A DNA stretch of 64,000 bases from Macrostomum lignano (lineage: Eukaryota). This document shows positions 10,808-64,000 of this stretch, in pieces; position 1 is the stretch's first letter; each line of letters begins with the position of its first letter. The stretch lies in contig NIVC01003589.1 of NCBI GenBank assembly GCA_002269645.1, positions 1 through 64,000 of the forward strand. The letters run 5' to 3'. A program made the position numbers and the translations under genes. Below the pieces are notes generated by a model, which was not told the origin of the DNA, searched no databases, and saw nothing but the letters and a program-made list of their open reading frames with translations.

Positions 10808-10909
10808 TAGTAGTAGTATGTTGTAAGGGGCTGAGTCATCCAGCGAGCTGGCGCGCAATGCGCCCGAGCAATCAAGTGTGGCGCAGCCCCTTACAACACA
10901 CTACTACTA
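10808..10909. repeat. 102-bp hairpin: 26-bp inverted arms (1 mismatch) beginning (T)AGTAGTAGT
   Basis: tagtagtagtatgttgtaaggggctg (10808-10833) versus cagccccttacaacacactactacta (10884-10909); inner ggcgc/gcgcc stem. Confidence 0.9.
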
Positions 10910-13615
10910 AGGTGGACAACTTTACAGCTTGTGGATCGAATTGGCAATTTGATGGAATTGAACAACTCGACTTGATGCTGTGTATCTACCGAAAAAGCAC
11001 AATTCGTGGAGCAGCAGCAGCCCACGAAACCCGCGACCAGACGGCAGAGCCGTCTGGTCACAGGCGTCGCACCCCCACCCCCGTGGCGGCGGCGGCGGCG
11101 GCGGCGGCGGCGGCGGCGGGCGTGCGTTCAAAGTGCCAATATCGCTCAGACTGAAACGAAATGCTGTCATCTATTTGAAACCACACAACTCCACTCAAAC
11201 CAACTGTTTTCGGTATGCTGTACTGGCAAGCCTTTTCCACGAAAAGGTTACTGCGAAGCCGACCAGCAAGAAAAGCTACGCTCCATGGTTGAAGACGATT
11301 CGTTTCGGCGGCGGCGGCGGCGGCCCAGCGCGTCATGCAACTCCCTCATACAGGAAATTCTGTCGTCGAAATCCGAATATTGGTCTACGAGTATTTGTCT
11401 GGGATCACGAGAGCAAGACTGCTGTTCAATATTTTTCGTTGCGTGCCACGGATTAAAAGTATTTGGCTAATTGCTTGTTCATTCCTCCGTATGTTGAGTT
11501 CAAGTCGGGACATTATATGCCAATAAAAAATCTCAAGTCGTTGTTGAGCAGCAACAATAAGCGCCGAAGATACAGCCCCGAATGTTTGGTTGGGTTCAGC
11601 CACACACTCTCTTGGAATTTTATTTTGAACCAGCACAACTACGGAGGAGGAACCTTGGACAAACCGACCACGCAATGGGCAAGTTCAGCGAGTTGTTGTC
11701 CTCGTCGTCATCCTGAAATTCGTGTGGCTCGATCTGCGTCAACAGAGCTGCTACCAAAACCTTCGGAAGCTATTCTTGAGTTCACTGCACATGAAGCTCG
11801 ACTGCCTCCGTTATACGTGGTCCATGCCGACATTGAGAGCATTCTTGCTCCACCTGAAACTCTACAGTTGGGACCGCCGCGAATAGGCGCCAGTTCAAAT
11901 ATGCGCATTCTAGACATTCATGTGCCTGTGTGCGTTGCCTACAGACTTGTGGTGTGTCCGGAGCTAAACAAATTGTCGGCCGCGCGTTTGCAGGCCAAAG
12001 TTGGCCAACAGCCATGCAAAGTCATCTACAATATGCCAGACGGGGGTCCGAATTGCATTCGCCAGTTTTTGCAAGCTCTTCGTCAACTTGCCTTTGAAAT
12101 TTGGAGTGACACTACAAATTCTGCGACGTTTACTCCTCTGCTGTGCAAGTATGCCTGCAGTAGGCAGCAGCAGCAGTCGGCGGAGCATTGTCAGCTTTGT
12201 GGTCGAGCGTTTGGAGAAGACGACCGCCAGGTTTTGGATCATTGTCATTTGACTGGTATGCCTCGAGGAATCGTTTGTGTCTCCTGCAATCGGAAACTGT
12301 CTCTCAAACGTTATCGTCTACTTGTCTACACTCACTGTCTGAGCAACTATGATGGCAAATTCTTTGTGAGAGAATTGTACGAGACATTTTCTGGAAATGA
12401 TGTGCAGCTACACGTGCTTCCAGAGACAAAAGAAAAATTCAAGACATTTTCGGTAAAGTTTAAGATACCCCTTGGTGCGGGTGCGTCTCGCCAGCAGACG
12501 CGACGCGACTTTGTATGGTTCGAGGTGTGTTTTAAAGACACTTTTGCCTATCTGTCCACCAGTCTGGCTTCGCTAGCTCAATGTCTGTCGCCCGATCAGT
12601 TGGTTCACACTCGCGAGTTACTCAAATTATATCCTCGCCTGCAGCCTGCTAAACTTCAACAGAAGGGAGTTTTTCCTTACAACTTTTTGTCTAGCGAGGA
12701 GAAACTTGATTCCGTCAGGCAACTGCCGCCAAAAGAGGCTTTTTTCGATCGGTTGAGTATGCAACACTGCTCTGATCAAGACTATGCACGAGCGCAACAG
12801 AGTTGGCTAGAATTTGAATGTACCAATCTACGCCAATACACCACGGCATACCTGCAGTTGGATGTGCTGCTTTTGTGTGACGTGTTTGAGAACTTTCGAA
12901 AGACTGCAATGCAAGAGTATGGACTCGATCCGGCCAATTTTTTAGGCTTGCCCATGTTTAGCATGGCTGCGTGCTTGCTGGGTATGGAAATGCCGATTCA
13001 TTTGTTCACGGACCCTAAAATGTATTCGGAAGTAGAAACCTCGATTCGCGGAGGATTCAGTTTTGGAACCCGACACATTACGACCGCAAACAATCGACTT
13101 GTGCAAGATCAGCGTCGCCGACTGGATCAGGAGGAGCCGCTGCTTTCGACGTTGCGTGATAATGCACCCGATGGTACCTATTTGGTTTACTTGGATGCCA
13201 ATTCGTTGTATGCTTCTTGCATGACCGAACCTATGCCGTGTAAAGATTTTCGCTGGTCGACTCGTCAAGAGATTGCTAGTATACCTTGTGACGAAACTGA
13301 TCGACTTGAGACCCTGCATGTTAAAAGTCGAATGTTGGATTGGTTGGTCGGTTTTTGCAACGATGGGCGTGGAGCCGTTTTCAATGTCGACTTTTATTAT
13401 CCTCGATTTTTGCACGACTCTACCGCTGATCTTCCACTCGCGATTGGTCATGAGATTCTGACGGAGAATCGGCTTACGCAGCAAATGAAGAACGACTGGG
13501 TTTGCTTGCAACGTCAACTAAATCCAGAGCGATATGCCAATGCTGCCTGCTACGAGGACGTGAAACCGTTCAAGAGCCCAACAAAAAAGCTTGTCGGTTC
13601 GGTGGATCACAAGCT
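10909..13615 (+). pseudogene. polB: Protein-primed family B DNA polymerase, family B element, N-terminal part
   Basis: GSNW; HADIES (ExoI); CQLC...DHCHLTG...CN insert; NYDG (ExoII); KGVFPY; DVLLLCDVFENFR; IRGG; YLDANSLYASCM. Frameshift in the (GGC)n region and TAA at 11454. Confidence 0.92.
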
Positions 13616-14428
13616 AGTAGAATGCATGAGGGGGCTTCTGCGACAAAATTTTTCACGTCCTTCATAATCCTTTTAAATCCATCCATATTATCCCCAACAG
13701 AATCAGAAAAAAGCGGGGTCGCACTTGCTCCGAAAACTTCGAACATAATCCCATTAAATCCATCCATATTATCCCCTGACAGAATCAGAGCAGGTGTCCA
13801 CTGATACCTGTTATGCTCACTGTGGACACTTGTTATGCTCACTGACACTGACATAATCCACTGACATCCACCCATAGCATCTTCGAAACAATCAGAAAAT
13901 AATCTGCATTCTTCTCCCCACATTCAATTCGCAATGCGAAGCGGCGAAACCAGATCCCTAAGACTTAAAATCCCCAAATCTAGGGTCCTTACCCTTTGAA
14001 AAAAAATAAATTTTCTCTAAAAATGTTTCCAGTTGTCTCTCCAAGTTCTTATTACAAAGCGCACGAGCCTAATTACAAGAGTAAGTACCAGTGCAAGAAG
14101 GAATGCAGTGAGTACATGAGAAAATATTGGCTCGGCGTTGATATCAATGTCCCTAATATTAATCTAGCTCTCCAAAGACACTGGTTTCTTAAATACGGAG
14201 TAACATACGTAAAAGATTACGACAGCTACTATAACTTTGCAGAAATCATTAGGCAATTGTGATTTCTTACATTCTCTCAATGATCAACGTCAATACAAAC
14301 TCTTCACCGTTGAAATCAACACCCACCCCATCTTCAGTCTCAAATTGTATCACAATCTCGTGAATCTCCTTATTACTCAATACAACTCTTTTCACCGGAT
14401 TTGGTTTCTCTACCAGCATCTGTCCTCC
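13616..14428 (+). repeat. Left TIR of the outer family A copy (2 units of a ~82-bp VNTR, small ORF, penton 3' end)
   Basis: Reverse complement of 56067-56794 apart from one VNTR unit. Confidence 0.92.
14023..14262 (+). CDS. 79-aa TIR-encoded protein, unknown function
   Basis: Intact ORF in all four complete TIR copies (14023, 22877, 38121, 56472). Confidence 0.65.
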   Translation: MFPVVSPSSYYKAHEPNYKSKYQCKKECSEYMRKYWLGVDINVPNINLALQRHWFLKYGVTYVKDYDSYYNFAEIIRQL

Positions 14429-62870: not shown

Positions 62871-63113
62871 TATAAGCTTGTCAGGATTCGTTGATTTGAA
62901 AAGTATACGTGAGCCGATAAAAAATGTCGTCTGACGTTAGGCGTGGAATTTGTCTTTGCGTTTGTCGTTTTTTTGCTCGTCAACGCCTATGTTGCGCTCG
63001 ATTGGTGACTAGTTGCATTAAAAAGGAGGACGATCTTGCAGATCACACTGTGAACGTTCAAGCGAGTTTTAACTGCTGCAACACACAGGGCGGAGCTGTT
63101 TCGACCGATATTC

Positions 63114-63582
63114 ATGGAGGGGCGCGAGAATACCAACCACCAGATTCATAGTGCTGTACACGAGTTTCTTAATCGCCAGTTTTTTTACTTGGAGAATCCG
63201 TCTTCTTATTCTGGAAATAAAACGAGCTTGCTTCGGGCGGTGCGCAAGATATTCCCTCAGATTCGGCTAGGGGTTGCGCGAGACATTGTGTTCGATTGGA
63301 TAAGGTCAACTCAGAAGCACCATCTGTTTCAAAAGGCTCGACGGAATTTCCCTACACCAAAATTAGTGTCCCGCCTGTTGCTCGGTTTCAGTTTCAGATC
63401 GACTTGGCAGATATGCAGCAGTATCAGGCTGAGAATCGGAGTTATCGTTTCATCATGGTTTTAATTGACTGCTTCACTAGAGTTGTTCGTCTACGCGCAC
63501 TTCGCACCAAAAAACCTACGGAAGTGAGTCGAGTTTTACGCGATATTTTCAAGAGTGGTTTCAAGCCGCTGTATTTGCAGGG
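63114..63582 (+). pseudogene. Integrase of the family B element, frameshifted and interrupted by a family A TIR
   Basis: YLENPSSYSG, QFQIDLADM, VLIDCFTR, KPLYLQG then the TIR. Confidence 0.88.
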
Positions 63583-64000
63583 AGTAGAATGCATGAGGGA
63601 GCTTCTGGGACAAAATTTTTCACATCCTCCATAATCCCAATTAATCCATCCATATTATCCCTGACAGAATCAGAAGAAAGGGGGGTCGCACTCGCTCACA
63701 AAACGTCCTCCATAATCCCATTAAATCCATCCATATTATCCCTGACAGAATCAGAGCATAACAGGTGTCCTAGTTGCTCCGAAAACTTCGAACATAATCC
63801 TCTTAAATCCATCCATATTATCCCTGAATCAGAGGGTCCTACTCGCTCACAAAACGTCATCCATAATCCCCCTAACCTATCCTCCTTCCTCCACGACAGA
63901 ATCAGAGCATAACAGGTGTCCTACATAATCCACTGACATCCACCCATAGCATATTCGAAACAATCAGAAAATAATCTGCATTCTTCTCCCCACATTTAAT
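63583..64000 (+). mobile_element. Left TIR of a third family A Polinton copy (continues beyond the window)
   Basis: Starts agtagaatgcatgagggagcttctgggac; ~4 VNTR units. Confidence 0.92.

Follow-up and report, generated by a model that had tools for sequence, protein, structure and literature searches.

The 64,000-bp window analysed here is the first part of contig C3589 (89,356 bp) in the 764-Mb assembly of the genome of an animal, Macrostomum lignano, and it contains a stack of Polintons inserted into one another; Polinton DNA makes up about 69 kb of the whole contig. Three families, referred to as A, B and C, are involved, and single natural copies elsewhere in the genome served as rulers (A, C1:1410497-1425919; B, C2529:17164-35936; C, on C273; contigs are given by C numbers). 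The host of the stack is a family B element, whose DNA polymerase gene (polB) is hit by a C and by an A element and whose integrase gene is hit by another A element. The middle part of its polB (10909-13615, forward strand, residues ~182-1084, by tblastn) is 97% identical to C2529 and matches PF03175 and PF02945. The right part (56795-63582, forward), 95-97% identical to C2529, carries the end of polB, a dUTPase region, an ATPase and the N-terminal half of the integrase. Frameshifts are present in this B copy, which we do not use to date its death because assembly errors are possible.

The left end of the window (1-10908, reverse strand) is a partial family C Polinton that runs off the contig start, is interrupted by a long interspersed nuclear element (LINE) and is 89-97% identical to the C273 copy. 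Its frames correspond to fibre-like and protease-like proteins, an ATPase (Pox_A32) and a double-jelly-roll capsid protein (DJR-like PF21738). Position 10908, which the original prediction had marked as a possible C terminus, is a true one: the same end is found at C273:163965, and there are 61 such ends genome-wide. Because B runs on upstream in C2529, we place the C insertion in B polB at approximately residue 181. The target duplication AAGGTG (10909-10914, forward) is single in uninterrupted B. An inward-facing inverted copy of the tip lies about 100 bp inside the terminus (10809-10908), as it does in C273, C1391 and C957; the inverted terminal 25 bp of the C ends (also at C273:163965-164063, C1391 and C957) could fold back.

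Family A has entered the same B element twice. The outer A Polinton with its nested cargo (13616-56794, reverse) sits in B polB, tiles on the C1 copy and has terminal repeats 98.7% alike over 684 bp. Its terminus lies at 13616 and the inverted partner ends at 56794, with a perfect duplication, CAAGCT, on either side (13610-13615, forward, and 56795-56800). CAAGCT is single in C2529, at about residue 1084 of the 1272-residue frame, and the B polB frame picks up again from 56795 on. The outer copy is itself struck in its own polB, by a second A Polinton (22397-38819, forward; rve, PLA2 and Adeno_PX) and by a pile of about three LINE copies (40295-51985). The left end of the inner A is damaged: the first 26 bp are missing, GGCACT... 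is found on both sides, and in their place stands a short piece copied from the flank, with a 15-bp duplication (22380-22400, 38803-38834), a pattern such as templated repair would leave. The LINE pile is bounded by a 158-bp duplication (40137-40294 and 51992-52149), which is 96% alike and long for a LINE target duplication, and two of the LINE copies lie tail to tail near 47330.

The left end of a third A copy (63583-64000, forward) is located in the B integrase gene directly behind PLYLQG, one codon ahead of the second catalytic Asp. PLYLQG-D is uninterrupted in all three close B copies and all seven B' copies (10/10 together). The partner of its candidate target duplication, GCAGGG (63577-63582, forward), was not found: there is no A partner end anywhere in the remainder of C3589, and none of 32 assembly matches is an orphan right half of the B integrase. 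The right-hand junctions of the locus are also present on contig C4149, where a Helitron-like array breaks the right terminal repeat and the sequence stops before any GCAGGG partner. Past the window, a fourth A (74868) sits in a long terminal repeat (LTR)-like piece within the capsid gene of the third copy, and a fifth (82267) in the polB of the fourth; their duplications, CCAGAG and TACACA, are seen on contigs C4149 and C5061. At the locus as a whole, B is hit by C once and by A twice, and A is hit by A three times, once via the LTR-like piece. The two A insertions in B and the hit in the polB of the outer A had been read correctly in the original prediction, all coordinates of which hold.

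The nesting at the locus is real. Four of the insertions have exact 6-bp duplications (CAAGCT, TACACA, CCAGAG and, for C, AAGGTG), one contig of run X2 bridges the C/B junction (10869-11010), and the far C/B junction, which matches B upstream, is present in three runs (X1, X2 and X8) from two studies; X1 and X2 possibly represent the source sample. Run contigs also break off precisely at 63582 and begin precisely at 56795, the pattern that a branch separating occupied from empty forms would produce. All this speaks against an assembly artefact, in which near-identical repeats would have produced the nested structure, and we regard such an artefact as very improbable. In its favour, C4149 links the right-hand junctions of the locus to a left end with a foreign flank, a sign of chimerism among A copies, and the junctions 13615/13616, 56794/56795 and 63582/63583 are bridged by none of the listed run-contig pieces, which in itself is no evidence against them. 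Contig C5061 gives no independent support because it is 99.9% identical to C3589.

Judged from sequence alone, all three families have the structure expected of Polintons/Mavericks. Terminal inverted repeats of A start with AG(T) and are flanked by a 6-bp target duplication (53 matching end pairs, a few of them by chance). Its Pfam domains are polB PF03175 and rve PF00665, with the ATPase PF04665 and the capsid PF21738 both under cut-off. The A protease has no Pfam match; an H/D/Q/C-type motif is seen by eye in 20885-21313, which may be that of an adenain-like cysteine protease. The B copy on C2529 has terminal repeats, the duplication CAGGTC, the 1272-residue polB frame and an rve integrase with a chromodomain-like tail (PF00385, E 3.9e-5, under cut-off). 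C has an AGTAGT end, a 6-bp duplication and capsid, ATPase, integrase and polB-like frames, the latter in C1391; its integrase matches that of B in blastp (E 1e-10) and has no Pfam match. Integrases of the unrelated families are only 27-33% alike.

We then consider family A insertions genome-wide. There are 309 exact A ends, 299 of which were listed and correspond to 231 events; 210 distinct flanks were read, leaving ~38 events and 10 unlisted ends unread. The flanks collapse to 202 junctions, to 196 without this locus, and to ~149 events after duplication pairing, a few pairings perhaps being due to chance. Nesting was called with a library of Polinton families A, B, B2, B', B'', C and D, the other families of the genome being outside it; the C and D references come from C273, a locus that itself carries an A insertion. 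The data are sequence, namely assembly contigs and contigs of sequencing runs. With this locus left out, 7/149 A insertions (4.7%, 95% interval 1.9-9.4%) are within library Polinton DNA, and 142/149 (~95%) are outside Polinton DNA recognisable with the library. Three of the seven are in C (C273:175370, C283:263659, C1391:143022), two in A (C2829:83152, in the protease region, and C273:133773, in polB), one in an internally deleted B'' copy without a duplication (C105) and one at the 5' edge of a B' polB, with the duplication TTTTTT (C3268/C4948). This strict count drops F44 (a 44-residue blastx match, E 8e-7) and F26 (an A fragment of 106 bp at C217 that has no duplication); keeping F26 raises it to 8 (p = 0.025).

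Family A integrates in the integrase manner, with a 6-bp duplication and almost no sequence preference. The sole feature of the junction logo is A/T three bases outside the duplication (167/202, background 54%), and no fixed target site or further motif was found across the 202 junctions. The flanks share no target repeat, and the two largest repeat clusters mix A and LINE flanks proportionally (7:3 and 6:4). No gene bias of nested A insertions was found either: outside the locus 2/7 are in polB or integrase genes, the B' case being counted generously (p = 0.65), and with the locus 6/12 (p = 0.10). A link of A junctions to a GGNCC nuclease was rejected, with 5/202 junctions having a site within 30 bp versus 13 at a control distance. 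GGNCC is scarce in family C (3 sites in 14 kb, ~17 expected), whereas A has 26 versus 27 expected; in the C parts of the window (1-3856 and 7980-10908) there is 1 site in 6.8 kb with ~8 expected, and A and B are not purged.

Polinton DNA in the genome, estimated from copy count times length, amounts to at most 3.7 Mb for A, 0.86 Mb for C and 0.72 Mb for the B group. Against 1.0 nested A insertions expected, the 7 observed represent a 6.8-fold excess (p = 1e-4). By target, 3 were observed versus 0.17 expected in C, 2 versus 0.14 in the B group and 2 versus 0.72 in A; the excess is driven by C and the B group, and A-in-A is not significant. The comparison of A junctions with Polinton content that the original prediction called for shows an excess, with 95% of the insertions elsewhere. 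The control was the LINE family found in the C element (557 copies), for which 100 loci gave 92 independent points after removal of one without an anchor and seven duplicates. None of the 92 is inside Polinton DNA and one is within 1.5 kb; in 35 long stretches 0 of 346 kb is Polinton DNA, and 39 long frames from the control stretches contain none of the Polinton hallmark domains. When any library match within 1.5 kb is counted, A has 17/149 versus 1/92 for the LINE (p = 0.002), or 13 without four weak matches (p = 0.02). The control is imperfect, since the LINE prefers tandem repeats (flank cover 29% versus 14% for A) and its ends are short; this family is frequently inserted in short tandem repeats, which make up 29% of its flank bases (L277-L337). 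A piggyBac-like control was useless, having a single match genome-wide.

Co-location is also seen in coordinates, independently of the library. Within 20 kb of an A end, there are 11/47 family C elements but only 1/141 LINE positions. The test uses end coordinates, C flanks not being read genome-wide; with this locus left out and duplicates collapsed, 8 of at most 44 C elements remain, whereas no more than 1.2% of the genome has an A end within 20 kb (binomial p = 1e-5 against a doubled null). Of the eight, three stand next to an A element without nesting, on C716 (2.6 kb), C957=C1568 (60 bp) and C2719=C2830 (3.3 kb); either order of nesting may hold at C67/C1830 and C2508. For the B group, 3/39 integrase sites have an A end within 20 kb, and two of the three represent a single event. 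Polinton families therefore co-locate above expectation, ~7-fold as nests and ~15-fold within 20 kb.

Nesting is reciprocal: C enters B (in the window), an A terminal repeat (C870) and a D-type element (C273), and A enters C, B', B'' and A. Reciprocal nesting, side-by-side clustering and the excess over the LINE control are all observed directly. Unrelated classes gather as well, both at the locus and in other A copies, among them LINE, LTR-like, piggyBac-like and Helitron-like elements. Besides Polintons, the locus holds at least six LINE pieces, the LTR-like piece and an element that we take to be piggyBac-like from its TTAA end and frame. Four long A copies were sampled (C48, C1203, C1340, C2854); their inserts are LINE, BEL, Gypsy, a P-like transposase and Helitron-like arrays, with no Polinton among them. 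The Helitron-like label is our assumption from a hairpin-CTAG end. This family is abundant and filled with tandem arrays (13-19 kb inserts; L403, L408-L410, L389, L347, L360, L364, L374), one insert carries an ankyrin frame, and the family occurs in 4/40 control stretches.

The locus is a stack of nested Polintons and ordinary transposons, and genome-wide the Polinton families co-locate above chance; we consider it probable that they do so by landing or surviving in a shared, restricted set of tolerant regions, and not because A recognises the genes of its rivals. Insertions of 15-19 kb would survive only where they are harmless, and an older Polinton would be such a place: once installed, it would be neutral sequence in surroundings that already accept large insertions. 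Later large insertions would be kept in such regions and purged elsewhere, while short LINE ends might be tolerated more widely. PolB may be struck often at the locus because it is the largest gene, about one-fifth of each element. The tolerated sink, one of two options in the original prediction, is supported, with other classes accumulating and nesting reciprocal, but insertions are not simply proportional to Polinton content, Polintons co-locating 7- to 15-fold and the LINE not at all. Several results weigh against tolerance as the explanation. The excess is not shared by the LINE, either in strict nesting (7/149 versus 0/92, Fisher p = 0.046) or in proximity to A ends (8 of at most 44 C elements after merging likely duplicates versus 1/141, p = 4.5e-5). 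Dispersed repeats cover 13% of A flanks versus 16% of LINE flanks (p = 0.56), transposon-protein matches number 18/196 versus 3/92 (p = 0.09), and 4/5 A insertions at this locus hit polB or integrase. A generic repeat-rich sink is not demonstrated, because A flanks are no repeat-richer than LINE flanks. Proportionality to general repeat content, named in the original prediction as the outcome that would speak against targeting, was likewise not what we found; the excess is Polinton-specific.

These results leave some room for a rather unlikely alternative, in which weak, reciprocal homing would take Polintons of unrelated families to one another's integrated DNA or to a common chromatin address, forming islands that would enable module swaps. 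Integration complexes would be attracted by Polinton DNA or its chromatin irrespective of family and gene; shared nuclear replication sites, germ-line co-activation or a shared host tether would be conceivable routes. We retain weak homing because A flanks are not repeat-richer and because, in fixed insertions, targeting looks no different from survival, an ambiguity that equally counts against claiming it. It would fit the cross-family excess, which is greater than that of A in itself, the empty LINE control and the chromodomain-like tail of the B integrase. It fits poorly with the 95% of A insertions that lie elsewhere, with the A integrase, which has no chromodomain match in Pfam, with the few B-group sites near A ends and with the bias of the control LINE to tandem repeats. 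That there is no real preference at all, the locus being a chance extreme and the excess the product of small numbers, a library derived in part from A-hit loci, duplicated contigs and an atypical control, appears improbable. The strict comparison is indeed borderline, the C and D references come from an A-hit locus, family sizes are estimates and contig duplication is common; but the test on C and A ends uses no library, collapses duplicates and excludes this locus.

The other option of the original prediction, in which A would act as a hyperparasite and disable competing Polintons by aiming at their polymerase and integrase genes, has very little probability left. What suggested it is that A has inserted in B polB and, within the B integrase, one codon ahead of the catalytic Asp; one B' copy is also struck at the 5' edge of polB. 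However, the integrase site is intact in ten other B and B' copies, A strikes its own polB and protease regions, C strikes A, about 95% of the A insertions read are outside recognisable Polinton DNA, and neither a target motif of the A junctions nor a gene bias was found. Moreover, B was struck three times, twice in one gene, which argues against sabotage, as a broken copy cannot be disabled again. If tolerant regions are the whole explanation, the locus is an ordinary transposon nest and chiefly a warning against reading single nested loci as targeting. Even so, ~230 A and ~45 C insertions in one genome allow Polinton target choice, barely described for animals in the searchable literature, to be tested. 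Homing, if true, would provide a physical means by which Polinton lineages could exchange polymerase and capsid modules, as described in the accessible parts of PMC8502044 and bioRxiv 10.1101/2023.08.22.554363.

Several other features accompany the stack. The LINE within the C element (3857-7979, forward; endonuclease PF14529, RNase H PF00075, GTAA tail; 557 3' ends genome-wide) is absent from the C273 copy. A LINE 3' fragment lies in the inner A (34010-34600, forward), with the duplication ATCATGCAATGC and a tail, and a further one, with RNase H (PF00075, E 0.0013), a duplication and an AAAG tail, in B (61749-62254, forward). B also contains a 455-bp insertion (58981-59429) that is absent from C2529 and skipped by contigs of runs X1 and X11. 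The inner A carries seven copies of a 93-bp motif (24386-25739) and, at 25853-26157, a tRNA-like dispersed repeat of 300 bp (RF00005, 30.8 bits), found beside the B copy of C2529 as well. An Rfam scan of the window gave no group I intron, the sole match being this tRNA-like one (25853-25926). A variable gene slot beside one terminal repeat differs among A copies (54840-55505 and 23651-24286 in the window), its frames having no Pfam match. Short two-ended A derivatives of 640-870 bp with their own duplications are found on C124, C289, C3455, C4682, C3907 and C32. Family B (C2529; L047:6515-7799, L048:3515-4261) encodes a TBP-fold protein (PF00352), a deoxynucleoside kinase and a dUTPase. The B copy C889:26751-45674 is mosaic relative to C2529, with ~75% identity across polB and 95% across the integrase half, which suggests module exchange between B subfamilies.

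The elements share with known Polintons/Mavericks (adintoviruses), as described in the accessible text of PMC8097293 and PMC8502044, a length of 15-19 kb, terminal repeats starting with AGTAG, 6-bp duplications, a protein-primed polB, the rve integrase, the A32-type ATPase, the double-jelly-roll capsid and protease-like, PLA2 and pX-like genes; that text contains nothing on Polinton-in-Polinton nesting or family co-location. A literature search, beyond the reach of which were most subscription papers and bioRxiv supplements, turned up no paper measuring a preference of Polintons for one another in animals. Nests of this kind have been described in protists. According to the available part of a preprint on Halocafeteria seosinensis (bioRxiv 10.64898/2026.07.28.741278), 14 virophage or Polinton-like elements are embedded in viral elements, including one triple nest; its authors describe viral sequences as hot spots, with elements that 'land where they are tolerated', and host transposons insert there too. 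In that protist 6.2% of the DNA is viral, often subtelomeric, and the part available gives no control element or enrichment test, whereas here, in an animal genome, the excess relative to a LINE control was measured as 7- to 15-fold. Retrotransposons nested in Polinton-like viruses are also on record, in the portion consulted of PMC12220804. In Cafeteria burkhardae, 91% of Ngaro type 1 retrotransposons are inside EMALE virophages (PMC8547959, in part). As here, a mobile element sits in an integrated polinton-like virus, and EMALEs lack sequence-specific integration; unlike here, where the inserter is itself a Polinton and only ~5% of family A is so placed, the targeting is pronounced. What marks a targeted hyperparasite of the Ngaro-in-EMALE type, a majority of copies inside the host and a recurrent site, motif or gene, is not seen for A (7/149, and no recurrence of any of the three). 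The plant DNA transposon GingerRoot (accessible text of PMC6839031) resembles A in integrating in the integrase manner with 6-bp duplications and no nucleotide-specific target, and in co-locating with related elements without a chromodomain; it differs in co-locating with chromodomain Gypsy elements in gene-poor regions and not with its own class. Set beside these systems, the locus is a real nest of an already known sort, to which the genome adds a modest but testable signal of co-location.

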